A stretch of 63,051 nt of DNA, filler included, from Stramenopiles sp. TOSAG23-6 (taxonomy: Eukaryota): the NCBI GenBank assembly GCA_900128565.1. It is 9 parts of 9 records of this genome, joined end to end, with 100 filler letters (N's around TTAATTAATTAA, not from the genome) between each part and the next. Parts side by side here need not be neighbours in the genome. Positions count along the whole stretch, not along the records: positions 56,175 to 63,051 come from LT636634.1; 8 more parts are not named here. One strand, given 5' to 3'. Made by a program: the position numbers and the translations under genes. Positions 6,948-63,051 of this stretch are shown piece after piece. How positions within the stretch are numbered: the stretch's first letter is position 1; each line of letters begins with the position of its first letter. The notes below the pieces were generated by a model, which made no database searches, was not told the origin of the DNA, and saw nothing but the letters and a program-made list of their open reading frames with translations.

Positions 6948-7047
6948 NNNNNNNNNNNNNNNNNNNNNNNNNNNNNNNNNNNNNNNNNNNNTTAATTAAT
7001 TAANNNNNNNNNNNNNNNNNNNNNNNNNNNNNNNNNNNNNNNNNNNN
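6948..7047. other. Artificial contig spacer (N-TTAATTAATTAA-N); also at 13993-14092, 21027-21126, 28058-28157, 35077-35176, 42081-42180, 49083-49182, 56075-56174
   Basis: Identical 100-nt spacers with six-frame stops; contig lengths decrease monotonically from 6947 to 6877. Confidence 0.98.
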
Positions 7048-13940: not shown

Positions 13941-14092
13941 ATGTTTTTTGGAAAAATATTTCAAAAAAAAATTGTTAGGTACAAAATTTCGTNNNNNNNN
14001 NNNNNNNNNNNNNNNNNNNNNNNNNNNNNNNNNNNNTTAATTAATTAANNNNNNNNNNNNNNNNNNNNNNNNNNNNNNNNNNNNNNNNNNNN

Positions 14093-21026: not shown

Positions 21027-21126
21027 NNNNNNNNNNNNNNNNNNNNNNNNNNNNNNNNNNNNNNNNNNNNTTAATTAATTAANNNNNNNNNNNNNNNNNN
21101 NNNNNNNNNNNNNNNNNNNNNNNNNN

Positions 21127-28057: not shown

Positions 28058-28157
28058 NNNNNNNNNNNNNNNNNNNNNNNNNNNNNNNNNNNNNNNNNNN
28101 NTTAATTAATTAANNNNNNNNNNNNNNNNNNNNNNNNNNNNNNNNNNNNNNNNNNNN

Positions 28158-35076: not shown

Positions 35077-35272
35077 NNNNNNNNNNNNNNNNNNNNNNNN
35101 NNNNNNNNNNNNNNNNNNNNTTAATTAATTAANNNNNNNNNNNNNNNNNNNNNNNNNNNNNNNNNNNNNNNNNNNNGTTTTTGTCAATTTTTTTTTTTTT
35201 TTTTGTTTTTTCATAGAAAATTTCATACCTAACAAAAAAATAAAAAATAAAAAATATTGTACAAAAATATAT

Positions 35273-35646
35273 GGGTATTCCCCAGTATAATATTGCCGCT
35301 TATAAACAATCAGCCGTTACGTCGCACATAGGAAAACTTCGTGGTCGTTTGATGATTATCCATGTACGCTTTCATCATGAATTTTAATTTTGTACCAAAT
35401 TGCGTACCTAACGATTTTTTTTACCAATTTAGAATTTCTTAATTTTTTTCACAATTTATGGACTTCTGGACGAAAATGTTCATTTTCAACATTCGGCACA
35501 GTTAGTGAGTGCTCTAACAGCTGCACACAAACTGTACGATTTATTGATTTTTCCAGATGAGCGGCATTCTCCTCGTTTGAGTAAAAACAAATCGTATTTG
35601 TTGAATCGCGTGGTAGATTTTTTTCAAAAAACATTTGAATAAATAA
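35273..35646 (+). CDS. Dipeptidyl-peptidase IV family (S9B) C-terminus; GT-AT intron 35364-35459
   Basis: LMIIH|GLLDENVHFQHS..LLIFPDERHSPR (catalytic Asp and His); not in the ORF track. Confidence 0.9.
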
Positions 35647-36009: not shown

Positions 36010-36939
36010 TTATTCGTCATCAGAATCTTCTTGGTCATCTTTCCATGCTTTCCAAGCTTTTTTCTGTGAGACGTAGTTCTTGCGACCCATGAGTCCACGT
36101 TTCTTCTGCTTCTTGCACTTGCTGGTTTTCGTGAATTCTTTTCCAGAGACGAAAGAAGGATCCTTGCGGATAGAGTTGTGCACAGCTTCGTAGAGGTCTT
36201 CCAAATCATCAGCTTCAACTCCAGCAGCAATGAACTTGGAGAATTGACGTTGGTATGAACCATCTTCTTTTTCTTCGAGCTCACGCATGTATTCGGAAAC
36301 GTGTTCACCAAAAATACGTGCACGGTGATCTTCAGCAGAGTAATCCTTAGCTTCAGCATCGTATCCAGGGAAACGTTTGCAGGAGTGAGGAATATCAAGA
36401 CCAGCATCAGAAGCTCCCTTGAGAGCACCAAAAACACGAGCACCGTTAGTAGTTGCACGGGTACCGACATCAAGATTGCAACGGAATGGGCGACGTTCGG
36501 TTTCCCAGTCAAGATCTTCGACGTAGAGAGTACGGCGACCGTACTTGGAAGTGACAACTTCACCGTCACAGACGTTTCCAGCGTACATCTCATCCATACC
36601 GAGGGTGGTAAGGAGACGACGTCCGAGGAGGAGTCCAGTACAGTAAGCAGCGCAATAGTTCTTGAGACCTACAGTGAGGCCATGACGCTTGAGCTCATTG
36701 GAGTAAGCAGAGCAGAGAACCTTGTCACCAGTAAGTTCGGCGTAGATAACCTGGCAGATGACTGTCTTGTTGGTAAAGCGGACAACAAAACGGTAACGTG
36801 GGGATGCATACTTGTTCTTGGACTGAGCGACAAGACGTTTGCGAGCACGGTAGTCAGTTTTCCCTTCACGACGACGACGGTATTTCGTCTGGAAACGCTT
36901 GAAGTAAGCTTTGTTTTTGATTTCTTTTACAAAAGGCAT
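36010..36939 (-). CDS. RPL5: 60S ribosomal protein L5 (uL18)
   Basis: [30 protein letters not shown]; intronless, strong codon bias. Confidence 0.98.
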
Positions 36940-37221
36940 TGTTATTAAATTTGTTATAGGTTGGGTTAACACAAAGAAGCGGGACACGCACGAAGAAGCG
37001 GCCAAAGGTAAAATGAAATAAATCGAACGCGAACTGGCTAGAACGAGTAAAGCAGGTTTGTTCCTCCATTTTTTTTTTTGGAGTGATGTAACCGACAGCC
37101 CAGTTCATTACGCTAGATATATATATTATACAGAGTGACTTCTGGACATTTCTGCGAGAATTTCTCAATGTTATTCTGTGCATCCTAGCAATGTGCTCCC
37201 CGTTGACTCAGTGTTAATACA

Positions 37222-40124
37222 ATGAAGACATCACAGGCTACAATGCCAAATTTTGAAACAAAACAGATGTCAGCACAAGACGTTGTAGAAAAACAGCCAC
37301 CAACACAAATAGCAATCGAAAATGTTGTACAGAAACAACCAAAAGAATTAACACACAACTCTGTAGAGGCTACATGTGAAGCTTATTTTTCCCCGTGGGA
37401 TCCAACGGATTGGGTTCATATTGCTTGGGATATTCTAGTTGCGGTTGCTATTACGTATAATTTAGTTTTTTTTCCTCTGCGATTAGGATTCAATTTTGGG
37501 TCAGATAGCGTTTTTTTAAACGCTATAGACACAATCGCAGACCTGCTATTTATAATAGATATAATGGTAGGGTTTAATACTGCCGTAGAAATCACAGTGC
37601 GTGGCAAATCACGACTCATATTTGATAAGGAGGTTGTCATAAAGAAATATTTAGAAGGTTGGTTTTTTATTGACCTAGTATCGATAGGAATTCCATTTAA
37701 CTTGGTGCATTCTCCAGAACTGCAATTTTTGAGTTTGCTAAAAGTTCTTCGTCTTTTCAAACTGAACAAATTAGTGTCCGGTTTATGGTCTCCTTCACCG
37801 GAGGGTAAGAAAATGTTTACTCTAGGGAAATTAATGACAATTATTATTTTTGCAGGTCATTTAATTGGTTGCATTTATTGGTTAATAGGTTGCGAAGATT
37901 TTTACCCCCAGCCAGACTCCTGGATCGAAGCTGCAGGTTTAATTCAAAACTCATACACAACATTAATAGATAATTACATGCCTGGGTTTTATTTTGCTAC
38001 TATGACTCTGACATCTGTAGGATATGGAGACATTAGTGCAAGTACTACAAGTGAAATGGTTTTTGTATCAGTCATTATGCTTCTTGGAGCAGTTTTGTAT
38101 GCTCTAGTTTTAGGTATGACCACTTCTGTTCTTGGTGCACTTTTCGCAAGAGATCAAGCTTTAGTGGATAAATTAGAAGTTTTTACTCAATTTACGAATA
38201 CGTTTGCATTGGACTCTAAATTGCACAATGAAATCCAAGGAACTATGAAATTTCAATGGAAATTATCTCGAAGTTTCAATATGGAGAGAACCCTCGACGT
38301 TTTACCTCATTCTTTGAGAAATGTATGTTTTATGTTTTTTCAAATTCGAATTTTTTTTCGTACGAAATTTTGTACCTAACGATTTTTCTTTCAAATATTT
38401 TTCCAAAATACATAAAACATTATCCGAGTTACATACACCGCTGATGTGTAGAGTTCCATTCTTTGCTGCTTGTGATTCATCTTTCTTAACCGAAGTAGTA
38501 TCAAGACTAAAACAACATGTTTGTCTTAAAGGTAGTAAAATAATGGAAGCAGGAGAAATCGGTACTGATATGTATATACTTGGCGAAGGTGTGGCTAGCT
38601 TACAAGCATCAAAAAATTTTGAATTGCGTCGATTAATTACGGGTAGTTTATTTGGCGAAATTGAACTATTAGTTGAAAATTCTGAATCTAGACGTTTGTT
38701 TAATGCTGTTGCTCAGACACCATCAGAATTTTATTCAATTTCTCAACGGCATTTTGTGTATATTTTAAGCAATTTCCCAGACATTAACAAATCAATCAAG
38801 GATTTAGCTCTACAACGAGTTCGAAGTTTCACACGAAAACTTTCAATGTATTTTTATCGACAATCTGGTTCAATAAATAAACCAAATATACAAGAAAGAA
38901 AACGATATCCATGGGGTGATACGTTACTTATTCGATTAATTTGTGCACGATCATTGAAGGCGATGGATTCAGGTGGTGCAAGTGACCCTTATGCAACCGT
39001 CACAATAGGAGAAGCGAAAAGTATCACTGGAACGAGGTTAGGTGTCACTGAGTCTACACAAGTGCAATTTGATACTCTAAACCCAACCTGGAATGCAACT
39101 TTTGGTATAGAAATTACTAAGGAACATTTTCCTGCATCTTTATTTGATAACCCTAGTAGTGAAGGATTGACCATTACAGTGTATGATAAAGATCAATTTG
39201 ACTCAGATGATGCCATTGGTGTTTGTGTTATTCCTTGGGATCGAATTTTACCTAATGGTAAAAAGAAAAGGTCATCTCTCAGAGTCAAGAAATGGGAGAA
39301 ACTGAGACGTCCTAATGTAACTTCAATAACAGAAGATTTGATGCATCCTTTGGGTTCAATATTTAGAAAAATTACACATAATAGTAATACTAGCAATACA
39401 GCAAAGATAGTACCTGAACAATTAATTACACAAAGTAATAACTCGTCAGCAATAATACCTGAACAAACGAAAACTATAGAAAATAAAGAATGTAATGATT
39501 CAAATAGAAATAAAGAAGAAAAAGATTTGAATTATCAAAATACGTATCCTAAGCACCAACTAGTTCATGAAGATACTCATAACATGTGTGAACACCTTGA
39601 AGATTCATCTAGCGACGACGATTCGACTGAAAGTTTAGGAAGTATTTGTTACTCCGTAAGTTGGAAACAAAATGAAATATCAATGGGACATGTATGTTTA
39701 ATTTTTTTTCAAATTCGAATGTTTTTTTCGTACGAAATTCTGTACCTAACGATTTTTTTTCAAATAATTTTTCAAAATACATTTACTAGCTAGAACACGA
39801 GAGAAAGAACGACAATTATGTATGAGTATTCCAAGTGAACGTGTTAAGCAGCAATTTAAGTCTGCCTGTCAAATTCAGTATAGTTGGCGAAAAATGTGGG
39901 CAATAAAAAAGAAAGGTAAAATTCAAGAAGAATTAAAAACAAACTCTTTACCAGAAAACAAACTCTCACAAGTAAATGAATTTGGGCGAAGATCGAGACT
40001 TTTATTAGAAATGCGGCGAGTAAATAAAACAGAGCAGAATGTTTCATTGCTACTTGAAAGAATTAGACAATTGAAACAAAATATAAGAAAACATAAGGTA
40101 CTTACATCCTTTGACGCACATTAG
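37222..40124 (+). CDS. Cyclic-nucleotide-binding voltage-gated K+ channel (EAG/CNG-like) with C2 domain and IQ motif; GT-AT introns 38323-38413, 39692-39782
   Basis: S4 LLKVLRLFKL, filter TSVGYGD, CNBD FGEIELL, C2 DSGGASDPY..YDKDQFDSDD, IQYSWR. Confidence 0.9.
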
Positions 40125-40241: not shown

Positions 40242-42080
40242 TCAATTGATACCATGCTTTTCTTGTTGTTCTTGTTGATGTATTTCCAAAATAAACTTTG
40301 CACATTCTTCTTGAGTAAGTCTGTGCAAATCACTGACCTTGTGCTGATGAGCAACACCATAATGTTGATCAGCTACATATATTGTAAGAAATATTTTTTT
40401 GGAAAAATTGTTAGGTACGAAAAGTAGTATGAAAAAATAAATTCGAAATTCAAAAAAAAGAACGCACCTCAACTTGCTCTTGCCAAAATGTAGACGTAAT
40501 AAATTGTACAGCACTATCTTCAGAATGAGCTTGACGTTGAATAAGAGCAGCAACAGAAGCTCGATGAGTTGAATCAAGTGCTTGGTCAATTTCATCAAAC
40601 AAGTAGAATGGTGCAGGATCACATCTCTGAATAGCAAATATAAGTGTCAAAGCAACAAGAGCTTTTTGACCACCAGAAAGTTGCTCCATTAGCACGGGCT
40701 CCCCAGCACCAGTAAAAGACACTTTCACACTGATCCCATTTATTCTTTTAACTTTTCCTGTAGCATCTTTATCGTCTTCGTCTGAATCACTTTCCTCGTC
40801 TGAATCGACTTCAGTGTTGCCTATATCTGAAGCATTTTCCTTAGATTTGCCTTTGCCTTTGCCTTTATCCTTCTTACTCTTCTTTTTCTTTTCTTTTGTT
40901 AAAACGATGCAACCATTTCCAGCTGGAACCAGCTCCTTAAAAACATTTGAAAAATGTTTTGCAACATCAGTAAATGTACGCATAATTGCCTCATCTTTTC
41001 GTGCATCTAATACTTTAAGAAGATCTTCAATAGAACGATGACCTTCGTCTAATTCAGTTTTTCGAGCCAACAATTGTTCACGTTGCTCTGAAAAGTTTAC
41101 ATACTGGTCAAGTGCTTTTTTGTTAACATGAGAATACTTTTTAAGAGCTTTACCTTTTTGTGCGAGTAATTTCATTAATTTTTTTCGATTAAAAGTACGA
41201 TATGACTGCAATTCACTTTCAGGAAGAGAACCCAATTCACTGATTTTCGCCTTTGAAGAATCTCTTTTTTCAATTAAAAGACTTCTTTTATTTGTTCTTT
41301 TTTCCATTTGTTTAGCTTGCTCTGCCAAAGACGCTTCCCGTTCTTGCTTCGTTGCAGTAACTTCCTCTTGGATGCCTTGTAGCGTTGAAATACGCTTACT
41401 TAATACTCTTTTTTCTTCTTTCAATTTATTAAGTTGCTCATTACAATCACTAGAAGACTTTTGTAAGACTTTTAGTTGCCTTCGTTTAGATGACAATACA
41501 CGAACTCTTTCTTCCATATCCATCGTTGAAGAACCTCCAATACCAGCTGTTAATTGTTGTGAAATCTCAAGATGTCGACGTTCAAGATTCGTCGATAATG
41601 ACATTTCTAATGCCGATTTTTGACTTCTGCATCGATCTAACTCAGCTTCGGCATCACTCGCTTTTCGTCCAACTTTTTTTAATTCTGCTGTCAAAAGACG
41701 TAACTTAGATTGCTCAGCTTTAGATAATTGTTTTAGTAGAGGAGTACCAATCTCTGCGCTTAGACTATCACATTTATCGGATAAGACTTTCGCAGACGAT
41801 TCTAAATCTAAAGCTTGGTTTTCTTTTAAAGTTCGCGATGCCGACCAATTTTTTATATTCTTATCAGAATGATCCCTTTCAGTTTCACATTGTTGTAATT
41901 CAGCACGCATGTGTTGCCGTTTCATTGCAGCCTGTTGCATTTGGCCCATAAGGACAGTCACTCTTTGATCTGCTTTACGTGATAGTTCTGAAACTTTTCG
42001 TAATTCTTCTCGAATTTCATTTAATTCAATCGAAGCAGCAGCAACTTGAGCCTTTGCAGCCATCTTTGAAAAGCGCGAAT
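40242..42080 (-). CDS. SMC3: Cohesin subunit SMC3, C-terminal part; GT-AT intron 40377-40467
   Basis: YSHVNKKALDQY, LSGGQKALVAL, DPAPFYLFDEIDQALD, QVE|VADQHYGV. Confidence 0.96.
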
Positions 42081-45000
42081 NNNNNNNNNNNNNNNNNNNN
42101 NNNNNNNNNNNNNNNNNNNNNNNNTTAATTAATTAANNNNNNNNNNNNNNNNNNNNNNNNNNNNNNNNNNNNNNNNNNNNTTTCATCGACTTATCTGTTA
42201 TGATGTTAGTGTCTGAAGAAACATTTTCTTTTTCTGTGGACTTTGTTTGAGTTTTTAAAGAGTCTGTTGAATGAATGTTGGATGATTCTAATGCTTCATC
42301 CACTTTCATTAGGGTTAGGGTTTCATCCACTTTCATGTCGTTACCATTCATTTTATGGGGCACTTTATCTTTGGCTTTTGTTTCTTTTTCATTTTGTAAT
42401 GACCCATCTTTATCTTCATCGTTTGTAACTTCCATCGTTCCTATCTCATTTTTGTTATTTACATTATTTGTAGATGAAACAGAAGCCAGACGTTCTTCAG
42501 AGTTTAACGTTGCATTCGATTCTATGGTAATGATACTAGCTTTACCTCCTTTAGCTGCCTTCTTTGCTTTTGAACGATTTGCAATTACTTTGATTCTATT
42601 TCGATATTCTTTTGCCTTCGAGTGCCACTTTCGCATTTCGTGTTTTGCTTCTTCCAGTGCCGTTTTTAATGAAAGAATTTGTTGTTTTTGTACAATTAAA
42701 TCATTTTTTAGAGATATTACTGTACTACTACAAGTTTCACTAGAACTAGATGATTGAACACTTTTGACACGTTTCATTTTCAGAGTCAAACTGACTACCT
42801 TTTGGTCTGATATTTGAAGTTTTTGTTCGAGCTTTGCAACAGTACTCTCTGCTTCATGCCTTTCCTTCATAGCATGGGCTTTAAATAATAACAAAGTTTG
42901 CTTTTCTTCTCTTAGTTGATCGACTTCATCTTCCATGTATTTTGGAAAAATATTTCAAAAAAAAATTAAAATTTGTTAGGTACAAAATTTTTATAAAAAA
43001 ATAAATTCGATTTTTTTGTTAAAAAAAAAAATAAAACATACATCATTCTCATACTATCTGCATAACCTTGAGACGTTACTCCACCTAATCCAGCTTGACT
43101 CCCCCCACCAGAGATACCACCACCAAGACGTTGTTGCATTTGAAGTTTTTTCAAACGACGTAAAGTTTTTTTATGATTATTCGTCTCTATGTATTGTGGA
43201 AAAATATATTTTGTTTAGTAAAAAAAAACGTTAGGTACAAAATTTTGTATGCAAAATAAAAAAAATGAAATTGGTAAAAAATTCATGATGAAAACATTCA
43301 ATTCTAATGCTGCATCGAGTTCAACTTCACGCATGGATGGACCTGTTGATACAACGGTGTTTGCAATTTGCTTACGAACTCGAGCATTTTCACGTTGTAA
43401 TTTTCTATTTTGTTGGTGTTTCGCAGCTGATTTAAGAGTCAACTCTTGAATATCCTTAATTTTCATCACTAGCTTTTTATTCTGTTTCACACTTTTTTCT
43501 TCCAGTTGTTTGATTTGTGCTTTCCGTAACTCATTTTGTTCCTTTTCAGCAGCTAAAGAGTCAGATAATTTTTGGCATGTAGAATTTGCATTTTGTAATT
43601 TTTCATTCTTTTCTTTTGTTGCTAGTGTCCATTTTGCTTTGGCAGCATTGAAAGTTTCAAATGCAGTAGTAGCTTCATGTTTAGCTTCATCACGACAGCG
43701 TTTTAATTCAGCAGAAGCAATAGCGGATGCTTCTGAACTTTCTATATCATGATCTATCTGAGTCCTGATGACATGATCACGATAATCTGAAAGGAACATC
43801 GAGTTGCGTTCATTTAAAAGATCTCTTTCTGCATACATTTTGGCGATTTGATTTTTGCTGCTTTCTTTCTCTTCAAATAATTCCTTCTCAAGTCGATCAT
43901 TGTCAGCCTGTCGTCCAGATTTCTCACATTTTAACATATAAGTAGTTTTTGTCAAAGATTCTTGAAGACTCTCAGCTCGTTCATACTCTGTATGATATTT
44001 GGTTTCAAACATATTCTTCAACCGCGAAGCGTCATCTAATTGACCTTCTAATTCTTCTGCTCGCTCTGCGGATTCTGCACTTAATTGAGTCCGCAAATTT
44101 TCATTTTCATTTGTCAGTCTTTGGAGCCTTTCAGACACCTCAGGGTTTAATTCAGTACATCCTTCCCCTATTCCATTTGAATGAGAAAGAAGTGAAGCAT
44201 CTGCCTGAATTCCCAATTGTTGAACTGCATTTTCTAGACCTTTTTGAACATCTACAGCAACTAATCGATCTTTATGTAAAGCATCACACACTGTTGTGAG
44301 TTTTGCTGCTTTATGCTTATTTCGTAAAGCTTCTGCTCTTACTTCGCTTAATTCAACTTCTTGAGAAGTGACTCTTTGCTTATATTCAGATAGTCTTGTT
44401 TTCAATGAAGGAATCGTTTTTACTTGAGCTTCAAGTGCAATATTTTCAGAAACTAGAGATTGAATTTGTTCTTCTAACTTCTTAGTATGTCTTTTGAGAT
44501 CCATTGCATGTATTTTGGAAAAATATTTCAAAAAAAAAAATAAAATTTGTTAGGTACAAAATTTCGTACGAAAAAAAAATTCATACAAAAAAAAAAAAAA
44601 ACACATACATTAAGCCAGTAGGAGGAGATGATCGTTTTTTACTCTTTGATTTTTTCTTTTTCACTTTTCTCAATTTCATATTTTGCATTTCCATCATAAA
44701 TTGATCACAAATATCATTAGGTATGAAATTTCGTAAGAAAACAAATTACACACAAACTTCAAAAATTACAAAAATTACAAAAAAAAAAAAAAAAAAAAAA
44801 AAATTGGGCCTTTTGTTAAAAAAAAAATGTGGGTTTTTTTTTTTTTTTTTTTTTTTNNNNNNNNNNNNNNNNNNNNNNNNNNNNNNNNNNNNNNNNNNNN
44901 NNNNNNNNNNNNNNNNNNNNNNNNNNNNNNNNNNNNNNNNNNNNNNNNNNNNNNNNNNNNNNNNNNNNNNNNNNNNNTTTTTTCAATTTCATTTTCTGCA

Positions 45001-45554
45001 TTTCGGCCCTTGAATTTAAAAAAAAAAAAAATAAACAATTGTTAGTTAGTAACACATTAAAAAAAAAAAAAATGAAAAAAAAAAAAAATTGAAATTATTT
45101 TGAAAAAAAAAAAAAAATTGAAAAAAAAAAAATTTTTTGAAAAAAAAAAAAAATTGAAATTATTTTGAGATGAATAATAAAATTGTACATCATCGATGAC
45201 ATTCCTCCACCACCACTTTTTTGACCACGTGTATTTTTTTTATTTTTTTTCTTTCTTTGTTTTGTCTTTTTCAGTGTAACGCCATTTTGAATTGAACCCA
45301 GTAAATTTTGTGGCATGCCAAAAGATTTTTTTTGGATTTTTTTTTGTGTATTTTTTTTTGTGTTTTTCGTGTTTTTATTAAAACTTTGTAACGAAGTGTT
45401 TAAAACACATTCAATATCTTTTGTACTAAACCCTTCCCCTTTCATTCTCATTTTAATAACAACACCAGGAGCACCTGTATTTTTCATATCAAACCATTTT
45501 TGTAATTTTGGGTCATGAGGATCTATTGCTTTAGAGAATATGTTTTTTAGGAAA

Positions 45555-45585
<31 letters not shown>

Positions 45586-45677
45586 GGGAAAAATTTTTCT
45601 ATTAAAAAAAAAATAAAAAAAAAAAAAAAAATTTTTTTTTTTTTTTTTATTTTTTTTTTAATAGAAAAATTTTTCCC

Positions 45678-45708
<31 letters not shown>

Positions 45709-45723
45709 TTTCCTAAAAAACAT

Positions 45724-46654
45724 ATTCTCTAAAGCAATAGATCCTCATGACCCAAAATTACAAAAATGGTTTGATATGAAAAATACAGGTGCTCCTGGTG
45801 TTGTTATTAAAATGAGAATGAAAGGGGAAGGGTTTAGTACAAAAGATATTGAATGTGTTTTAAACACTTCGTTACAAAGTTTTAATAAAAACACGAAAAA
45901 CACAAAAAAAAATACACAAAAAAAAATCCAAAAAAAATCTTTTGGCATGCCACAAAATTTACTGGGTTCAATTCAAAATGGCGTTACACTGAAAAAGACA
46001 AAACAAAGAAAGAAAAAAAATAAAAAAAATACACGTGGTCAAAAAAGTGGTGGTGGAGGAATGTCATCGATGATGTACAATTTTATTATTCATCTCAAAA
46101 TAATTTCAATTTTTTTTTTTTTTCAAAAAATTTTTTTTTTTTCAATTTTTTTTTTTTTTTCAAAATAATTTCAATTTTTTTTTTTTTTCATTTTTTTTTT
46201 TTTTAATGTGTTACTAACTAACAATTGTTTATTTTTTTTTTTTTTAAATTCAAGGGCCGAAATGCAGAAAATGAAATTGAAAAAANNNNNNNNNNNNNNN
46301 NNNNNNNNNNNNNNNNNNNNNNNNNNNNNNNNNNNNNNNNNNNNNNNNNNNNNNNNNNNNNNNNNNNNNNNNNNNNNNNNNNNNNNNNNNNNNNNNNNNN
46401 NNNNNNAAAAAAAAAAAAAAAAAAAAAAACCCACATTTTTTTTTTAACAAAAGGCCCAATTTTTTTTTTTTTTTTTTTTTTTTTGTAATTTTTGTAATTT
46501 TTGAAGTTTGTGTGTAATTTGTTTTCTTACGAAATTTCATACCTAATGATATTTGTGATCAATTTATGATGGAAATGCAAAATATGAAATTGAGAAAAGT
46601 GAAAAAGAAAAAATCAAAGAGTAAAAAACGATCATCTCCTCCTACTGGCTTAAT
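45724..46654 (+). CDS. Fragment of an actin regulator with WH2-like motifs (mirror copy on - strand at 44609-45539)
   Basis: DPKLQKWFDMKNTGAP..KMRMKGEG, LLGSIQNGVTLKKT, MMAEMQKMKLKK, MMEMQNMKLRKV. Confidence 0.55.
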
Positions 46655-46755
46655 GTATGTGTTTTTTTTTTTTTTTGTATGAATTTTTTTTTCGTACGAA
46701 ATTTTGTACCTAACAAATTTTATTTTTTTTTTTGAAATATTTTTCCAAAATACAT

Positions 46756-49082
46756 GCAATGGATCTCAAAAGACATACTAAGAAGTTAGAAGAACAAATT
46801 CAATCTCTAGTTTCTGAAAATATTGCACTTGAAGCTCAAGTAAAAACGATTCCTTCATTGAAAACAAGACTATCTGAATATAAGCAAAGAGTCACTTCTC
46901 AAGAAGTTGAATTAAGCGAAGTAAGAGCAGAAGCTTTACGAAATAAGCATAAAGCAGCAAAACTCACAACAGTGTGTGATGCTTTACATAAAGATCGATT
47001 AGTTGCTGTAGATGTTCAAAAAGGTCTAGAAAATGCAGTTCAACAATTGGGAATTCAGGCAGATGCTTCACTTCTTTCTCATTCAAATGGAATAGGGGAA
47101 GGATGTACTGAATTAAACCCTGAGGTGTCTGAAAGGCTCCAAAGACTGACAAATGAAAATGAAAATTTGCGGACTCAATTAAGTGCAGAATCCGCAGAGC
47201 GAGCAGAAGAATTAGAAGGTCAATTAGATGACGCTTCGCGGTTGAAGAATATGTTTGAAACCAAATATCATACAGAGTATGAACGAGCTGAGAGTCTTCA
47301 AGAATCTTTGACAAAAACTACTTATATGTTAAAATGTGAGAAATCTGGACGACAGGCTGACAATGATCGACTTGAGAAGGAATTATTTGAAGAGAAAGAA
47401 AGCAGCAAAAATCAAATCGCCAAAATGTATGCAGAAAGAGATCTTTTAAATGAACGCAACTCGATGTTCCTTTCAGATTATCGTGATCATGTCATCAGGA
47501 CTCAGATAGATCATGATATAGAAAGTTCAGAAGCATCCGCTATTGCTTCTGCTGAATTAAAACGCTGTCGTGATGAAGCTAAACATGAAGCTACTACTGC
47601 ATTTGAAACTTTCAATGCTGCCAAAGCAAAATGGACACTAGCAACAAAAGAAAAGAATGAAAAATTACAAAATGCAAATTCTACATGCCAAAAATTATCT
47701 GACTCTTTAGCTGCTGAAAAGGAACAAAATGAGTTACGGAAAGCACAAATCAAACAACTGGAAGAAAAAAGTGTGAAACAGAATAAAAAGCTAGTGATGA
47801 AAATTAAGGATATTCAAGAGTTGACTCTTAAATCAGCTGCGAAACACCAACAAAATAGAAAATTACAACGTGAAAATGCTCGAGTTCGTAAGCAAATTGC
47901 AAACACCGTTGTATCAACAGGTCCATCCATGCGTGAAGTTGAACTCGATGCAGCATTAGAATTGAATGTTTTCATCATGAATTTTTTACCAATTTCATTT
48001 TTTTTATTTTGCATACAAAATTTTGTACCTAACGTTTTTTTTTACTAAACAAAATATATTTTTCCACAATACATAGAGACGAATAATCATAAAAAAACTT
48101 TACGTCGTTTGAAAAAACTTCAAATGCAACAACGTCTTGGTGGTGGTATCTCTGGTGGGGGGAGTCAAGCTGGATTAGGTGGAGTAACGTCTCAAGGTTA
48201 TGCAGATAGTATGAGAATGATGTATGTTTTATTTTTTTTTTTAACAAAAAAATCGAATTTATTTTTTTATAAAAATTTTGTACCTAACAAATTTTAATTT
48301 TTTTTTGAAATATTTTTCCAAAATACATGGAAGATGAAGTCGATCAACTAAGAGAAGAAAAGCAAACTTTGTTATTATTTAAAGCCCATGCTATGAAGGA
48401 AAGGCATGAAGCAGAGAGTACTGTTGCAAAGCTCGAACAAAAACTTCAAATATCAGACCAAAAGGTAGTCAGTTTGACTCTGAAAATGAAACGTGTCAAA
48501 AGTGTTCAATCATCTAGTTCTAGTGAAACTTGTAGTAGTACAGTAATATCTCTAAAAAATGATTTAATTGTACAAAAACAACAAATTCTTTCATTAAAAA
48601 CGGCACTGGAAGAAGCAAAACACGAAATGCGAAAGTGGCACTCGAAGGCAAAAGAATATCGAAATAGAATCAAAGTAATTGCAAATCGTTCAAAAGCAAA
48701 GAAGGCAGCTAAAGGAGGTAAAGCTAGTATCATTACCATAGAATCGAATGCAACGTTAAACTCTGAAGAACGTCTGGCTTCTGTTTCATCTACAAATAAT
48801 GTAAATAACAAAAATGAGATAGGAACGATGGAAGTTACAAACGATGAAGATAAAGATGGGTCATTACAAAATGAAAAAGAAACAAAAGCCAAAGATAAAG
48901 TGCCCCATAAAATGAATGGTAACGACATGAAAGTGGATGAAACCCTAACCCTAATGAAAGTGGATGAAGCATTAGAATCATCCAACATTCATTCAACAGA
49001 CTCTTTAAAAACTCAAACAAAGTCCACAGAAAAAGAAAATGTTTCTTCAGACACTAACATCATAACAGATAAGTCGATGAAA
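46756..49082 (+). CDS. HOOK-like long coiled-coil protein fragment; introns 47964-48074 (GA-AT), 48222-48328 (GT-AT); mirror copy on - strand at 42181-44507
   Basis: ELNPEVSERLQRLTNENENLR resembles the HOOK motif; exons join in frame. Confidence 0.65.
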
Positions 49083-49259
49083 NNNNNNNNNNNNNNNNNN
49101 NNNNNNNNNNNNNNNNNNNNNNNNNNTTAATTAATTAANNNNNNNNNNNNNNNNNNNNNNNNNNNNNNNNNNNNNNNNNNNNGAATTTATTTTTTCGTAC
49201 GAAATTTTGTACCTAACATTTTTTTTAGATTTTTTTTGAAATATTTTTCTAAAATACAT

Positions 49260-49635
49260 AATATTCAAGGTGCAAAACAACCTAGATTTATGCATATTGG
49301 TTCAAAAAAAACAATTCGTTATAAAAATCGTATTATTCTACCGAATTCAGGTTCTGGCAAAATTATTGGACAAATATGTTTTATTTTTTTTTTTAACAAA
49401 AAAATCGAATTTATTTTTTTCATACGAAATTTTGTACCTAACAAAAAATTTTAAAATTTTTTTGAAATATTTTTCCAAAATACAAGATGATAATGCTTTG
49501 TGTTTCAAATTGATCATTGAAGGAGTTTGTATGAATTTAGGTATATGGTGGTTTTCTGCAGCATTAAGAGGTGGACCTAAAATATTACCTGTGGTCAATG
49601 TTGATACAAAAGAAAGAAATCAGTCAAAACAATGA
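49260..49635 (+). CDS. Last two exons of an unidentified gene; AT-AA intron 49374-49485
   Basis: KIIGQ|DDNALCF joins ORFs 49236 and 49270 in frame. Confidence 0.6.
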
Positions 49636-50476: not shown

Positions 50477-51346
50477 ATGGTAGATTCAGCATCCGATATG
50501 TTTTCCAACATTCCTGTTGTAACACGCACTTTATTATGTGTTTCTCTACTTACAACGACATTATGTACTCTAGGTTTGGTACAGCCTATAGATCTATATC
50601 TGGATTGGAATCTCGTCTGGTATCGTTTTCAGTTATGGCGTTTGTTTACCTGCTTTATTTTCTTTGGGAAATTCAGTTTCCCATTTGTATTTCAAATGTA
50701 TATGCTGTATTCATATTCCAATAGATATGAGCAAGCTCCATATTCCACTACACCGGGGCAGATTCAGGGCAGAACTGCTGACTATGCGTACATGTTGTTA
50801 TGGGGAATGCTCATTAGTGCCATGGTTGCTTTTTTTCTTGGCGAACCTTTTCTTGGTCCAAGTTTAGTTTTTATGATTATGTATGTATGGAGTCGTAAAA
50901 ACGCGAATCAACCAGTTTCGTTGTTTGGTATTAATTTTATGGGTATGCACCTTCCGTGGGTGATGCTTGTGTTCTCTATACTCATTGGAAACTCTCCCGT
51001 AATGAATATTCTTGGTATGTATGTTTTATTTTTTTCAAATTTGAAGTTTTTTTTTTTTTTGGTTTTCATACGAAAATTTGTACCTAACAAATTTTTTTTA
51101 GATTTTTTTTGAAATATTTTTCCAAAATACATCATTGCTGGTCATGTTTATTTCTTTCTAATGACAGTGATTCCTGCAAAATATGGATATAATTTAATAA
51201 AGACACCAGAACTATTATGTAATTTCTTTGAAGCTGGTCAATATACATATGCAACGACACCATCAGGAAATATAGTTCGTGGTCAAAGACCTCAGACGAG
51301 ACATCAATGGGGAGGTGGTCGAGCTCTTGGAGGAGGTGCTGATTGA
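50477..51346 (+). CDS. DERL: Derlin (ERAD); GT-AT intron 51019-51132
   Basis: IPVVTR, QLWRLFT, YVWSRKN, LPWV, ILGI|IAGHVYFFL, SHP-like WGGGRALGG. Confidence 0.95.
51019..51132 (+). other. Family intron, GT-AT (prototype)
   Basis: GGT AT|GTATGTTTT..CATACGAAAATTTGTACCTAAC..GAAATATTTTTCCAAAATACAT|C ATT GCT GGT CAT. Confidence 0.88.
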
Positions 51347-52386: not shown

Positions 52387-54012
52387 ATGGTTTTGAACTA
52401 TTGTTTTAACTATGATGACGATGAGAATATTCATCGAGGCTGTGACCAGGAGAGTTCAACACCGGAAGGCGACAACTCCAATAATGTTAGAAATGTCTCA
52501 ACACATGAAAGACAAATTAGAAGAATTCCGCGACTGAAATGTAATATTATCAAGTGGTTAAAACTTCTCCTACCACTGATAATTTTGACACTTGCTGGTA
52601 TACTTGCTGTAAAACTTAGTGGTGATTCAATACTTGTCGTTGGAGAATATATGGAAGATAACAAACCTGTTTCATGTATGATATATGTTGTAGTATTTAC
52701 ATTAGCTGTGTCCTGCTGTTTATCTAGTTCAGTATTTACGATACTGGGCGGATATATCTTTGGATTTTTTCAAGGCTTTTTATTATCTCTTATCTCGATG
52801 GTATGTTCGATGTTTTTAGCCTTTTTTATCATTCGGGTATGTATTGGACGTCGTCAGGGAGGCTGCTGTAAAAAAACAAAAAAAACAAAAAAAACAAAAA
52901 AAACAAAAAAAACAAAAAACAACNATCATAGAGAATTAGTCTTATGTGATTCACCATCAAACGTTTTATGCGATTCGGCTTCAAAAGTATCTCCAGAGAA
53001 AATAAGTGAGTATATTTTTGATACTACTACATTACGTGGACGAATGAGAAATTGGTTAATCAAAGAATATTTTAGTTTGAAAGTTTTAGAAGATTTAATG
53101 AAAACACGACCGATTTATGCCATTGTCATGATTCGTTTAACATATATTCCAACATTTGCAAAAAATTATGGTGTAGCAATTCTAGATGCACCTGTTAAAG
53201 AGGCAATGTATGCAACAATCATATCTAGTATTTACTCATCAGTCATTTGGGCATATATGTAAGTTATCAATGGTATCAATGTAGAATTTAAATTTTTTTT
53301 TTTAGAATTTTTTTAGAATTTTTTTTTTTTTAGACTTTTAATTTTTAAATTTGTACCTAAACAATTTTACATTTTTTTTTTAAATATTGTCTCAAAACAC
53401 AGGGGAAGCGCTACGGAGTCAATGGTGGATACTCTCAACGAATCAAGTCCAAATGAAGATGACAGCATTGCTCAACAGATTCTTGAGTTTTCACCGATAC
53501 TTTGCTCTTGTTTTTTTACACTAGCAATGATTTTTGTATGTAACCCTAATCAATGTGCAATGTATTTTTTACAATGAAAATTTTGTATCCACTAACATTT
53601 TTTTTTTGTTTAAAAAATAAAAATATTTTTTCACAATATATATAGTGCGACGTAAAGTTAAGCAAGCCATCGATAGAGCTAGACTTCAGGTTCAAGAGGA
53701 GAGTCAAAGTCAAATTCCAAATAATATGTACGTTTTATTTTTTTTCAACAAAAAAATCGATTTTTTTTTTCGTACGAAATTTTGTACCTAACGATTTTTT
53801 TTTTGAATATTTTTCCAAATAATATTGCTCAAAGCCCTGTAAATATCACTGAAAATCTTCTTATTACTCCGATGCAGAATACTGCCATAAAATCCATCAA
53901 ACCACCGAGTCTAACAAAACCACCCAGTGAACAATCACATTGTGAAACTGTAGAGATACAACCAAAAAGTCAAAATCGTGTTGTAATTCCGCCACCGAAT
54001 TGTCCTGTGTAA
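52387..54012 (+). CDS. VTT/DedA (TMEM64/TVP38-like) membrane protein; introns 53259-53402 (GT-AG), 53536-53641, 53728-53825 (GT-AT)
   Basis: GGYIFGFFQG, IRLTYIPTFAKNYG, WAYM|GS. Confidence 0.85.
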
Positions 54013-56074: not shown

Positions 56075-56174
56075 NNNNNNNNNNNNNNNNNNNNNNNNNN
56101 NNNNNNNNNNNNNNNNNNTTAATTAATTAANNNNNNNNNNNNNNNNNNNNNNNNNNNNNNNNNNNNNNNNNNNN

Positions 56175-60155: not shown

Positions 60156-61578
60156 ATGGCCGAAGAAATAGAGAAACACGTACTTCGGAAATATGAAATT
60201 TGCCAGAAACTTGGAAAAGGTGTACGTTGCATTTTTTATACGAGTCTTCGTGTAGTCACATTCTACGTAATAGTTTTGTATGTTGGACACTAGAATTTAT
60301 ATTTTACAACTTCTAATTATACCATTATTTATCATATCATTTAGTAACAGGCATATGGCATAGTTTGGAAAGGTATCGAAAAAAAATCACGAACTACAGT
60401 TGCTTTAAAGAAGTGCTTTGATGCCTTTCGTAACGCCACTGATGCACAGAGGACATATCGAGAGGTCATGTACTTACAAGAGTTGGGACATCACGATAAT
60501 ATAATCAAGTTACTTAATATAATCAAATCTGAAAATGATAGAGACATATACCTTGTATTTAACTACATGGAAACTGATTTACATGCTGTAGTCAGAGCTT
60601 CGATTCTTGAAGACATCCACAAGCAATACATCATCTACCAATTATTAAAAGCATTAAAATATATGCATTCTGCAGAACTTTTACATCGAGATATTAAACC
60701 CTCAAATCTTCTATTGAACTCAGACTGTCATATACGAGTATGTGATTTTGGATTATGCCGATCGGTGAAAGAAATACAATCAGGACCTAATCCTGTACTG
60801 ACTGATTACGTTGCTACGCGTTGGTACCGGGCACCTGAAATTCTTCTTGGTTCAACTCATTATACCAAAGGTGTTGATATGTGGTCTTTAGGTTGTATTC
60901 TAGGTGAAATGCTTCTAGGAAGACCGGTTTCTCCAGGGACATCCACCATGAATCAATTAGATCGAATCATGTATGTTTTCATTTTATTTTTTTTTGAAAC
61001 TTTTTTTTCATACGAAATTTTGTACCTAACAAAATTTTTTAGATTTTTTTGAAATATTTTCTGAAATTTCATGGAAGTCACCGGACGGCCCACAAAGGAA
61101 GACATTTCTGCTATACGTTCACCATTTGCTGCTACAATGCTTGAAAATTTGCCTCCAACAAAACCCAGGCCATTAGCCGAAATTTTTTCAACTGCCTCTG
61201 CCGAGGCTCTCGATATGATGAGGTGCTGTCTAAGGTTCAATCCTGAAAAAAGAATATCATGTACGTTTTCATTTAATTTTTTTTTGAAACTTTTTTTTTT
61301 TTTTTTTTCATACGAAATTTTGTACCTAACAATTTTTTTTAGATTTTTTTGAAATATTTTCACAAAATACATGTGAGGAAGCATTACGACATCCATATGT
61401 TGCTAAATTTCACAACACGGAAGATGAACCAGTTACCGATGCACCAGTAACACTAAAAGTCGATGATAACAAAAAGTACTCCGCAGCCAGTTACAGAGAA
61501 AGACTCTATAAAGAAGTGAAGCGACGTAAACAAGAAGCTCGAAGAAGACGTCATCGACGAGAAAATGCGAGCCAGTGA
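60156..61578 (+). CDS. MAPK15: MAP kinase ERK7/MAPK15; canonical intron 60222-60350, GT-AT introns 60971-61072 and 61261-61372
   Basis: [61 protein letters not shown]. Confidence 0.95.
60971..61072 (+). other. Family intron, GT-AT
   Basis: ATC AT|GTATGT...TTTCAT|G GAA GTC; the TAG at 61040-61042 would give a stop. Confidence 0.88.
61261..61372 (+). other. Family intron, GT-AT
   Basis: TCA T|GTACGT...AAATACAT|GT GAG GAA GCA. Confidence 0.85.
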
Positions 61579-61825
61579 ACTAACAGCTACATTTTTTTGT
61601 TAGGTACAAAATTTACTACGAAACAAAAATAGTATATAGAATTATTCAACGTTTTATTCATAAAAAAGCAAATAATCAAAAATTTAAAATGATGAAAATA
61701 TTTAAATTTTATTATTTTGTTTTTTTCATGCACAATAATAAAATTTTTCAAGAGATGTTGAATAAAATCAAATTAATTAATGAGGTGATGTTTCAGCACC
61801 TTTTTGAACGTCTACTTAAATTAAT

Positions 61826-63051
61826 TTAATGAGGTGATGTTTCAGCACCTTTTTGAACGTCTACGGGTTGGCCAGTCGCACTTTCAGCTGTTTCCGTAAA
61901 TGGTGAATATTTAGCCAATTGTCTTACTGGTAACTTCATTGCATCTCTTCGAAAAGGATCACCCAATTCACGAGTTACCATTACCTCAATAATTGTTGTT
62001 TTTCCGTGTTTCATTTGATTTTCTTCGGCTTGTTGTAAAGCAGGTCCGACCTCTTCAATTGTATTTACAAGAATACCCTCAGCGCCCATTGATTTTGCAA
62101 TTTCTGCAAAGGATCCAACACGTGGTAAGTTAGTTCCAACATAACGATCACCAAACCATAATACTTGATTTTTTTTCTCAGCACCCCATTGACCGTTGTT
62201 AAAGACAACATGGATTATAAAAAATATTTCAAAAAAAAATCTAAAAAAATTTGTTAGGTACAAATTTTCAAAAAAAAAAAAAAAACATAAATTCAAAATT
62301 GAAATGAAAACGTACCTGTGTCATTGGAATATCTTCACGTACACAGGTGAGAACTTCACATAATTGCATACCCCATGCACCATCACCAGAATACCCCATG
62401 TATTATCAAAATATATTTTTTTTTTTTACAAAAATGAATTGTGTTAGATATGAAATGTTCATACAAAAAAATATTTTGAAAAAAACATTTTGGAGGGGAA
62501 AAAAAAACTTACATTGCAAAACGATCAGGATTCGCAATTTTTGCACCCATTGCTGCTGGAAAAGAATATCCGCAATTACCAAACGTCATTGCTCCAAGAA
62601 AGGATTTAGGTTCTTCAAATCTTAAATATGAGTTGGATACGGAACAAATATTTCCAATATCAGTCGCAACAATTGCACGTTTTGGCATAGCTTTTTCCAA
62701 TTCGCGCAAAACTGTTCGAGGTTTTAAAAACCCATCAGGGGCGTTTCCTTGTGACATTGACGTGAGTTCAGCTTCCCATTCTTCTTTAAATGCTGTCGCT
62801 GTCGCTAAACGTTCCGATTTCGTGTTTGTTGAGACAACATCAAGAGACAAAAGACGTTCAAAAATATCTTTTGTAGCTGGTTTTACATCTCCATTCACTC
62901 CTACATGAACATCCATGAATTTTGGAAAAATATTTCAAAATTTTCTAAAAAAAAAATTGTTAGGTACAAAATTTACTATAAAAAAAAAATCGATTTTTCT
63001 GTAAAAAAAAAAATAAAACATACATGGCAGGATTGTTTCCAACTCGTTTTG
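61826..63051 (-). CDS. xsc: Sulfoacetaldehyde acetyltransferase (ThDP-dependent), C-terminal part; GT-AT introns 62210-62315, 62398-62512, 62915-63023
   Basis: TDIGNICSVSNSYLRFE, FGNCGY, GDGAWGM, QWGAEKKNQ, TRELGDPFRRDAMK. Confidence 0.88.

Follow-up and report, generated by a model that had tools for sequence, protein, structure and literature searches.

How is the 3' end of an intron chosen when a textbook T-run and TAG behind the branch site must be passed over? The question is raised by an ERK7/MAPK15-type kinase gene in a 63,051-nt stretch of DNA from Stramenopiles sp. TOSAG23-6 (GCA_900128565.1; nine records joined with filler, hereafter the window). In the intron that we call MAPK_a, the sequence TTTTTTAG begins 5 nt past CCTAAC, which ends at 61030, and the G of its TAG lies 13 nt past the presumed branch A and 30 nt ahead of the end that is used. 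A sequence-only reading of this DNA had held that splicing at TTTTTTAG (61035-61042) would truncate the kinase, and it does: joining 60970 to 61043 gives ...DRI-IFF-stop (ATA TTT TTT TGA). The TAG inside the next intron, MAPK_b (61340-61342), is in frame, and its use would add 10 residues.

We aligned kinase exons 2-4 singly to PDB chain 6v6a_A, a solved ERK7 structure. The exons match the chain end to end, with exactly one split-codon residue between neighbors: exon 2 ends at residue 232 (6v6a_A numbering), the split codon is 233 and exon 3 covers 234-295, and at the second junction the split codon is 296 and exon 4 starts at 297. A relative at 95% identity, P0121, has 323 of 341 residues equal and no gap at either of these two junctions. 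Given that the exons are contiguous on 6v6a_A and that P0121 aligns gapless, the MAPK_a junction lies after ...CAT and not after TAG, and the same two comparisons bear out the earlier proposal that the acceptor is not the first AG past the branch-like motif. Together they require the removal of exactly 102 + 112 nt, a length that these comparisons make exact at the protein level. The border of MAPK_a itself is ambiguous by a few nucleotides, because both junctions carry TCATG.

Both introns belong to a family with 35 unique copies in about 59 kb of the window, each about 90-155 nt long and spread over unrelated genes (kinase, Derlin, TruB, peptidase, channel, HOOK-like and others; Table 1). 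Within the window, a 12-mer containing the branch motif occurs 27 times against 0.01 expected, and a 20-nt box, allowing at most 2 mismatches, occurs 13 times against 0 expected, 11 of these being unique after setting aside a duplicated stretch. The layout is a GTAYGT start (5' splice-site consensus GTATGTTTT), an invariant TACCTAA branch-like motif, a T-rich tail (643 of 1321 bases are T) and an AT or AG end, with 21-58 nt (median 40) between the branch-like motif TACCTAAC and the 3' end. In an alignment of 24 copies, only TACCTAA and the A at -2 never vary. That A is present in 35 of 35 copies, followed at -1 by T in 30 and G in 5, such that 30 copies end in AT and 5 in AG; by triplet, 23 end in CAT, 4 in TAT (27/35 together), 3 in AAT and 5 in an AG-ending triplet. 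Common to all copies is a T-run that gives way to A-rich positions at -9, -7 and -6 and then the A at -2.

Table 1. Coordinates of the kinase gene, its introns and other family copies, counted along the window
Feature	Coordinates	Strand	Evidence or remark
ERK7/MAPK15-type kinase gene	60156-61578	+	Exons 60156-60221, 60351-60970, 61073-61260, 61373-61578; 360 codons
Kinase intron 1, unique (non-family), canonical GT-AG	60222-60350	+	Splice restores GKGAYG glycine loop as in relatives
Family intron MAPK_a, 102 nt, GT...AT	60971-61072	+	Per-exon alignment, relatives, frame test
GTATGT, 5' splice-site consensus of element	60971-60976	+	MAPK_a sequence, family alignment
TACCTAAC, branch-site-like motif of MAPK_a	61023-61030	+	TACCTAA invariant in 24/24 aligned copies
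TTTTTTAG, T-run and TAG to be skipped in MAPK_a	61035-61042	+	Frame test, distances
Family intron MAPK_b, 112 nt, GT...AT	61261-61372	+	Exon alignment, relatives
Family intron, Derlin (DER1) gene	51019-51132	+	Internal TAG at 51099-51101
Family intron TruB_b, TruB gene	7368-7465	+	AAG at 7458-7460
Family intron, DPP8/9-like S9 peptidase gene	35364-35459	+	TAG at 35430-35432
Family intron chan_a, Ion_trans / cNMP-binding / C2 gene	38323-38413	+	Family and frame tests
Family intron chan_b, same gene as chan_a	39692-39782	+	Family and frame tests
Family intron HOOK_c, HOOK-like coiled-coil gene	42935-43041	-	Family and frame tests
Family intron g8537	8434-8537	-	Internal TAG 10 nt past branch A
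Family intron g62315	62210-62315	-	Internal TAG; upstream exon ends in CAG, not AT
Family copy ending in AAG (1 of 5 AG-ending)	21508-21608	-	Family alignment
Family copy starting ATATGT (G1 to A), ending in CAT	34579-34687	-	Removal leaves 58 open codons on each side

When a complete copy is taken out from GT through AT, 29 or more open codons are left on each side in 21 of 23 cases. Shifting the 3' end by +1 or by +2 reduces this to 6/23 in either case, and reading the opposite strand to 1/23. Some copies fit poorly: HOOK_a calls for removal of 100, 103 or 106 nt, not 101, the copy at 34472 misses by one, TruB_a sits behind an assembly gap, and g49375 can be read as AT...AA or TA...AG. A survey of non-family introns by ORF adjacency proved too noisy for use. 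Of the last three upstream exon bases in 27 listed copies, a few of them with coordinate slips, position -3 is C or T in 17, -2 is A in 21 and -1 is T in 18. Copies 19253, 62315, 7368 and 24978 are among those whose upstream exon does not end in AT; where it does, as in most copies, an AT...AC or TG...CA register would yield the identical mRNA.

Could canonical GT-AG sites be used after all, as in the public gene model, with the proteins carrying small insertions and deletions at these places? We regard this as very improbable. The public coding sequence, P0244, is identical to the window exons at 351 of 352 aligned residues and resolves all three kinase introns with GT-AG sites, taking as acceptors the TAG at 61340-61342 and an exonic AAG ending at 61097. 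By frame alone such a solution is widely available: among 20 copies examined, 15 of the 18 non-AG copies can be rescued by an in-phase AG, mostly within the downstream exon, and just three (MAPK_a, Derlin and g19253) have no frame-keeping AG. The P0244 solution, however, changes the kinase by +11, -8/+1 and +10 residues, none of them shared with the close relative or with solved ERK7, and it deletes EVTGRPTK, which is in frame in the window and conserved in P0121, L001, P0122 and 6v6a. The internal TAG, if used, would give a stop in MAPK_a and a frameshift in Derlin. The same annotation also wrongly removes 8 + 35 residues from an uninterrupted RPL5 frame, and is therefore not reliable.

With exclusion by frame this weak (15/18), homology must carry the argument against AG use, and it was applied to the kinase (both introns), TruB and the peptidase. 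In TruB_b, ten exon residues past the TruB_N match and the split codon occupy profile positions 1-11, and downstream the TruB_C_2 match picks up at profile position 12; the AAG at 7458-7460 lies 5 nt ahead of the intron end, so its use shifts the frame. The Derlin TAG (51099-51101) lies 31 nt ahead of the frame-restoring end and likewise shifts the frame. Both frameshifts had been anticipated by the sequence-only reading, as had the effect of the peptidase TAG (35430-35432), which is in frame, 21 nt past the branch A and 27 nt ahead of the intron end, and would split the H from the G of the HG motif by 9 extra residues. The downstream peptidase exon begins at G830 of the DPP8 HGFLDENVHF stretch; the upstream exon, at 30 residues too short for the search, gave no match. 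Relatives of the HOOK-like exon, sought in order to read its junction residues, gave no matches either.

Internal AGs occur in 11 copies, and in 8 of these the G is 10-15 nt past the presumed branch A. AG is rarer in the tails than expected (11 versus 20.8 +/- 3.5, P about 0.004), which suggests that AG is probably still recognized as an acceptor in this organism. We hold it possible, though short of probable, that the bypass of the TAG is ordinary, the AG being too near the branch point for the second step, with tolerance of AU the only novelty needed. The spacing in those 8 of 11 copies fits this explanation, two of the remaining internal AGs are AAG, a weak acceptor context, and the depletion in tails suggests that AGs farther from the branch are selected against and hence recognized. 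Against it, budding and fission yeast can use an AG 10-15 nt from the branch, and the peptidase TAG, 21 nt past the branch A and behind a U-run, is by homology unused. Taken with the use of AG in 5 copies, the depletion and the spacing indicate that skipping may be partly ordinary. Two other candidates were rejected. Nested, stwintron-like splicing in two canonical steps fails, as no internal GT...AG removal brings an AG next to the downstream exon, and masking of the TAG by an RNA fold found no consistent structure in the six copies folded (z = -2.29, 0.42, -0.71, -1.75, -1.14 and -0.30).

What, then, marks the distal site? The sequence-only reading had looked to a conserved box, GAAATATTTTTCCAAAATAC, or to pairing of the intron ends. 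Neither is supported by the sequence. Only 11 of 35 unique copies carry the box (at most 2 mismatches), it is missing from 60971-61072, the very intron for which it was invoked, and where it is lacking the AT end is found at the aligned position all the same. The consensus ends do carry a 6-bp inverted repeat, ATGTAT/ATACAT, which U:A pairs can lengthen, and pairing is possible in 77.5% of cells. Substitutions, however, disrupt pairs instead of compensating: covariation is 0.048 versus 0.052 after shuffling, and 311 of 500 shuffles equal or exceed the observed value. The inverted repeat also bears on whether the elements are removed by non-spliceosomal excision guided by their ends, either on RNA, as has been proposed for Euglena nonconventional introns and Amoebophrya introners, or on DNA, which we judge very unlikely. 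Such excision would suit the pairable repeat and the copies with A for G at +1 (34687 and 49375), which still lie between intact open frames. Pairing, however, lacks covariation and comes with no consistent stable fold (z from -2.3 to +0.4 in 6 copies), and conservation is highest in a textbook 5' splice site and branch site, which end pairing does not need.

Removal by a minor (U12-type) or U12-like spliceosome, which would tolerate non-AG 3' ends and choose the site by distance, is to our mind very unlikely. Among U12-type introns GT-AT is a known rare subtype, and their 3' site is not found by AG scanning; the consensus is RTATCCTT at the 5' site and TCCTTAAC at the branch, which lies 10-26 nt ahead of the 3' end. 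The family shares the GT...AT ends, its T-rich GTATGTTTT is faintly reminiscent of RTATCCTT and its branch motif, which ends in TAAC, of TCCTTAAC, and some stramenopiles keep a minor spliceosome. But its 5' site GTATGTTTT is unlike RTATCCTT, with G and T rather than CC at +5/+6, and its sole conserved branch-like motif is too far from the 3' end, at 21-58 nt (median 40) instead of 10-26 nt. An Rfam search of the window returned no match, and thus no minor snRNA there. U12-type snRNAs complementary to GUAUGUUUU and UACCUAAC, were they present in the genome, would contradict a U2-type reading.

U2-type introns have a GURNGU 5' site, a YNYURAY-type branch site and a pyrimidine tract, and the family matches them with GTAYGT, TACCTAA and its T-rich tail; the AG expected at the 3' end is seen in 5 of 35 copies only. 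On this sequence evidence we consider it likely that the family is an introner-like mobile element, cut out by a U2-type spliceosome tolerant of A-U at the 3' site, convergently with Fritillaria tunicates. The interval 60971-61072 would then be a single copy of such an element, introner-like and resembling a miniature transposon, dispersed over the genes of a MAST-3-like heterotrophic stramenopile. Each copy would bring its own signals, namely a GUAYGU 5' splice site, a strong UACCUAAC branch site, a U-rich tail, and a 3' terminal motif composed of a U-run, an A-rich stretch, the invariant A at -2 and U at -1. The U2-type spliceosome would remove the element from the G of GU through the U of the final AU, restoring the reading frame, with A-U as the 3' site in most copies and A-G in a minority. 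The U-run and UAG in the tail would be a consensus feature of one subfamily that is passed over, one likely reason being that the UAG lies just 10-15 nt from the branch A, the other that the second-step machinery of this organism picks the distal terminal motif. Spliceosomal removal, the GU...AU register, the branch point (assigned from motif conservation alone) and the reason for the bypass are what we infer from these patterns. Cryo-EM work on post-catalytic spliceosomes of yeast and human shows A(-2) in contact with the branch adenosine, and an invariant A at -2 is what a spliceosomal second step would lead one to expect.

Non-canonical introns of Fritillariidae tunicates were reportedly described by Henriet et al. 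in 2019, and introners are said to have been described in Micromonas and Aureococcus by Huff et al. in 2016. The U2-type introns of Fritillariidae, as presented in excerpts from Soo et al. 2026 (PMC13326754), derive from mobile elements, end in AT or AC alongside coexisting canonical introns, and have a uridine-rich tract and pyrimidine-A-pyrimidine as their last three bases, often with the same triplet before the 5' site. The family is alike in its last triplet, which is pyrimidine-A-pyrimidine in 27/35 copies, and perhaps in an upstream exon that mostly ends in AT. Unlike Fritillaria, the host here is a stramenopile and not a chordate, the 5' end is GTAYGT and not AG, and one family with a yeast-like branch motif dominates. 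The Fritillaria type has a non-GT 5' end, most often AG, in a tunicate host with duplicated U2AF; of these, neither such a 5' end nor a tunicate host is found here.

Introners, which occur in many aquatic protists, are described, in the part of Gozashti et al. 2022 (PMC9860276) available to us, as short, near-identical introns in hundreds to thousands of copies in unrelated genes, with their own splice signals and inverted-repeat ends, absent from the same site in relatives and restoring the frame on removal. The family has the near-identical copies in unrelated genes, own splice signals and frame restoration, and perhaps the inverted-repeat ends; it differs in that described introners use GY-AG, whereas 30 of 35 copies here end in AT, and in that no locus-specific target-site duplication beyond AT could be made out. 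Flanking direct repeats averaged 3.1 for a copy's own ends against 2.4 for mismatched copies and reached at least 4 nt in 6/23 against 24.5%, a comparison of 23 copies that did not tell a locus-specific target-site duplication apart from the shared AT. The introner elements of Amoebophrya, in excerpts from PMC7789003, have inverted and direct repeats at their borders and non-GT-AG termini, with long hairpin-forming repeats and no consistent terminal dinucleotides; the family here, in contrast, has canonical 5' and branch sites, and only its last base deviates. In the portions available of PMC12501133 and PMC12621601, the nonconventional introns of Euglena and diplonemids have non-GT-AG borders and pairable ends but no conserved 5' site, branch site or pyrimidine tract. 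All three are present here, and the pairable ends, although shared, lack covariation.

At both kinase sites no intron is present in P0121, L001 and P0122 (95%, 86% and 74% protein identity) or in more distant genomic contigs (two at 73%). For these two introns the comparison points to lineage-specific positions, as expected of recent gain. Possibly P0121 is genomic sequence from a relative devoid of both introns, and if so it shows what the mRNA must encode, not that splicing happens. Its N-terminus resembles a retained intron 1. The P0121 contig was not found in metagenome contigs, where the best locus, L001, is a relative at 86-87%, and the family 12-mer was absent from all 80 loci matched there. 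As to the host, for RPL5 and MAPK the nearest named relatives are stramenopile (GSMAST32 names, next Bicosoecida sp. ms1), and these sequences place the organism with MAST-3-like heterotrophic stramenopiles and not with animals. A Fritillaria-like tunicate host, suggested by the terminal triplet rule and by animal ribosomes ranking top for RPL5 in PDB, was rejected on the stramenopile nearest relatives in a large protein collection; animal ribosomes rank top because PDB holds no stramenopile ribosome.

The GT-AG rule is among the most constant features of eukaryotic genes, and the large-scale exceptions are, to our knowledge, few: Fritillaria, Amoebophrya and euglenozoans. The papers returned by a literature search (including PMC5778133 and PMC8163842) do not mention, in the portions available and supplements aside, non-canonical introns or introners for any MAST lineage. 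We put at about even the prospect that a MAST-3-like marine stramenopile lineage was invaded by thousands of ~100-nt introner copies with an AU 3' site (extrapolated from 35 copies in ~59 kb, about 0.6 per kb), and that 3' recognition by its major spliceosome was relaxed or re-aimed independently of Fritillaria, with textbook 5' and branch signals kept. Gene finders restricted to GT-AG give wrong proteins here, the public kinase model having three errors; if this scenario is true, the current proteomes of these organisms are systematically mis-predicted, which would affect every comparative study using such single-cell proteomes. A second independent lineage with mobile introns removed at A-U, the 5' and branch sites being otherwise perfect, would be a clean natural experiment: it would bear on what determines the 3' splice site at the second catalytic step, and on how a spliceosome adjusts when transposons invade.

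Both family introns of the kinase gene (see table), MAPK_a and MAPK_b, are 84% identical to each other, and related proteins fix the junctions that they interrupt. Aligned with chain 6v6a_A, Toxoplasma ERK7 according to its source name, exon 2 corresponds to residues 22-232 and exon 3 to residues 235-295 (its first residue falling at 234), and exon 4 is aligned from 297, leaving exactly one residue, the split codon, for each junction. The kinase relative P0121 is identical to the exons at 323 of 341 aligned residues and crosses both junctions without gaps, as do L001, an 86% relative, and P0122, a bicosoecid protein. At TruB_b, a family intron of the TruB gene, positions 1-11 of the TruB_C_2 profile are covered by ten residues of the exon together with the split codon, and the next exon resumes at position 12; downstream of the peptidase intron, the first exon residue corresponds to the glycine of the HG motif, G830 in the DPP8 chain. 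At the protein level, these comparisons show the exact length that excision would remove.

Coordinates of the kinase gene, its introns and the gaps between records
Feature	Position	Strand	Remarks
Kinase gene	start 60156	+	holds 60971-61072
Kinase intron 1	60222-60350	+	unique, GT-AG
Kinase family intron MAPK_a	60971-61072	+	102 nt; GTAYGT, TACCTAAC, T-rich tail, ...CAT end
Kinase family intron MAPK_b	61261-61372	+	112 nt; GTAYGT, TACCTAAC, T-rich tail, ...CAT end
Gaps with TTAATTAATTAA linker	6948-7047, 13993-14092, 21027-21126, 28058-28157, 35077-35176, 42081-42180, 49083-49182, 56075-56174		

For 21 of 23 complete copies, excising everything from the initial GT (AT in the one copy with G1 changed to A) through the last base, T or G, left each side with 29 or more open codons; this held for 6 copies with the 3' end shifted by +1, 6 with +2, and 1 on the opposite strand. 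The two failures were HOOK_a, in the HOOK-like gene, and a copy truncated where the window ends. Reading frames by themselves are insufficient against the real use of internal or exonic AGs, since an in-phase, frame-keeping AG, mostly within the downstream exon, is available in 15 of 18 non-AG copies (20 copies examined), but homology settles the matter against AG use in the tested cases.

The public kinase model, P0244, an assembled CDS in the same cluster as P0121 with a record name beginning GSMAST32, is a typical product of a gene finder limited to GT-AG. It matches the kinase exons at 351 of 352 aligned residues, and the differences are confined to three introns: exon 1 is extended to 60254, adding 11 residues within the glycine loop; at MAPK_a, a GT at 60975 is paired with an exonic AAG ending at 61097 and EVTGRPTK is lost; and at MAPK_b the internal TAG is used, adding 10 residues. 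None of these three changes is present in P0121 or solved ERK7, which speaks against AG use. P0244 shows that AG readings would yield aberrant proteins, and we consider real use of such AGs very improbable. The RPL5 model from the same annotation (P0005) cuts 8 and 35 residues from an uninterrupted 309-codon frame at 36013-36939 (-). The public models of both the kinase (60156-61578) and RPL5 are wrong, the former by three indels at three introns and the latter by two invented introns. A partial family copy at 61582-61629 (-), directly adjoining the kinase stop codon, is probably part of the neighbouring minus-strand gene, at its 3' end.

A blastn search of the window with the two kinase introns produced 181 alignment rows, covering both strands; the 12-mer TTTGTACCTAAC occurs 27 times versus 0.01 expected, and the 20-nt box (≤2 mismatches) 13 times versus 0 expected. 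We placed the 3' ends of 35 unique copies by reading frame or alignment to the family, counting those in an inverted duplication once. Thirty end in AT and five in AG, with the last triplet CAT in 23, TAT in 4, AAT in 3, AAG in 2, TAG in 2 and CAG in 1, and the presumed branch A lies 21-58 nt (median 40) from the intron end. In a 24-copy alignment, no variation is seen in TACCTAA, in the As at -9, -7 and -2, or at four T positions: three within T-rich stretches 5' of the branch motif and a fourth in the 3' T-run. Some copies are incomplete because several gaps, each composed of 44 N, the six-frame-stop linker TTAATTAATTAA and 44 N, cut family introns at T-runs. The inverted duplication, with arms at 42056-45631 and 45632-49207, is near-perfect (19 mismatches in 3575 positions, the N linkers mirrored too) and has the appearance of a chimera from assembly or amplification, not of a biological feature. 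Among the interrupted genes, 37207-39790, split by two family introns, combines ion-transport, cyclic-nucleotide-binding and C2 domains (Pfam).

A central palindrome, TTTCGTACGAAA, and inverted ends are common to the copies, which lie in sense orientation in unrelated genes; in the one gene compared, the kinase, relatives lack them. Flanking repeats have a mean length of 3.1 nt between the two junctions of one copy and 2.4 nt between mismatched junction pairs, so a locus-specific target duplication is not demonstrable. At the end of the upstream exon, 21 of 27 copies have A at -2 and 18 of 27 have T at -1, which fits either a duplication of 2 nt or a preference for AT targets. Since this exon mostly ends in AT, the splice register is ambiguous in most copies. 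We prefer GT...AT, because GTAYGT is kept even where the exon does not end in AT (19253, 62315, 21608, 7368, 24978) and because the five AG-ending copies carry AG where others have AT. In the copies at 53728-53825 and 27004-27116, the end of the upstream exon duplicates the last 13 nt and 8 nt of the intron, respectively, far more than in other copies; the latter intron also has two telomere-like CCCTAA units directly after its 5' site.

Several introns depart from this register. HOOK_a (44508-44608, -) calls for removal of 100, 103 or 106 nt versus 101, with borders GT...CA, TA...AT, or GT and an AAT that lies five bases further on. With GT...AT, the copy at 34357-34472 (-) is off frame by one base, and the frames of TruB_a (7068-7166) do not close either, an assembly gap having truncated the exon before it. 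Two copies between intact open frames start with ATATGT, G1 being changed to A: 49375-49486, ending ACAAG (AT...AA or TA...AG), and 34579-34687 (-), with a CAT end. A non-family intron, 10658-10758 (GTAAGT...TAG) in a second kinase-like gene, is off by one relative to the only open frames, which join only when one border is moved one base (TA...AG or GT...TA).

Of the 35 copies, 11 contain an AG past the branch-like motif but short of the used end. The sequence-only reading had held that such AGs are skipped, and the instances it named bear this out: at MAPK_a, TTTTTTAG is present at 61035-61042 and splicing there would give ...DRI-IFF-stop; the Derlin TAG (51099-51101) lies 31 nt, and the TruB AAG (7458-7460) 5 nt, 5' of the frame-restoring end. 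The peptidase TAG (35430-35432) is indeed in frame, 27 nt before that end, but the protein is nearer DPP8/9 than the DPP4 proposed. Eight of the 11 are the T-run and TAG of one subfamily, with common flanks, and so inherited from a master copy rather than of repeated origin. Their G lies 10-15 nt past the presumed branch A, with a further 30-34 nt to the end; five of the eight would go out of frame if this TAG were used, and of the three in-frame cases MAPK_a would run into a stop. The retention of such insertions by a conserved kinase and by Derlin is an argument for rare use of the TAG. In kinase intron 1 (60340-60350), a TTTAG six bases 5' of the used CAG is likewise bypassed, and its use would lead to a stop.

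Ordinary steric bypass, in which a TAG too near the branch is passed over, is compatible with GT...AT removal and a real possibility, though somewhat short of an even chance: the 10-15 nt spacing of those eight favors it, but the peptidase TAG, at 21 nt, does not, and shows that proximity would not be the whole explanation. The other two skipped AGs are AAGs at 20 nt and 35 nt. AGs are under-represented in the tails, with 11 observed versus 20.8 ± 3.5 expected from 2000 base-composition shuffles (run on a set of 36 tails with a few misplaced coordinates; the amended set of 35 gives the same 11). In our reading, AG is probably still a recognised acceptor in this host, as the five AG-ending copies indicate; AGs at usable distances are selected against, and the subfamily TAG is tolerated mainly through its closeness to the branch.

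Neither determinant proposed from sequence only, the 20-nt box or pairing of the intron ends, found support. The box is family consensus, found (≤2 mismatches) in only 11 of the 35 unique copies and absent from MAPK_a itself, and divergent copies without it still finish in AT at the aligned place. The ends do form an inverted repeat, ATGTAT with ATACAT followed by U:A pairs past a bulged G, and 77.5% of cells are pairable, but for nine proposed pairs in 24 copies covariation was 0.048 versus 0.052 in shuffles, with 311 of 500 shuffles at or above the observed value. Variants such as GTAC disrupt the end pair, and single-sequence folds of family introns gave no consistent stable structure. The most plausible interpretation of the inverted repeat is a transposon remnant, and non-spliceosomal excision, for which end pairing would be the basis, appears quite improbable when covariation is no better than in shuffles.

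Judged from its proteins, the host is a heterotrophic stramenopile. RPL5 relatives in a large protein collection are marine, at 83-87% identity, the public RPL5 model coming from a GSMAST32 record (a name that we take to denote a single-cell assembly of MAST-3 type), followed by oomycetes, diatoms, bolidophytes and pelagophytes at ~60%; the nearest named kinase relatives are Bicosoecida sp. ms1, Heterosigma, oomycetes and a pelagophyte relative. A Fritillaria-type tunicate host, prompted by that animal's last-three-bases rule and by animal ribosomes ranking first for RPL5 in the PDB, was overturned by the large collection.

Non-canonical, transposon-derived introns are known in euglenozoans. 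They are also described in Fritillaria (PMC13326754; review PMC11282704), whose last-three-bases rule fits the family introns, and in Amoebophrya (PMC7789003), and introners with canonical sites are described in many aquatic protists (PMC9860276). For MAST lineages, our literature search, supplements aside, found no report of non-canonical introns or introners, and in the passages covered, two MAST genome papers (PMC5778133, PMC8163842) either refer to introns in their methods alone or do not refer to them.

From motif conservation, we infer the 5' site and branch site of the family introns. The invariant A at -2 is consistent with second-step recognition of the 3' site. A U12-like system seems improbable, and these introns would probably be removed by the U2-type spliceosome at GU...AU.
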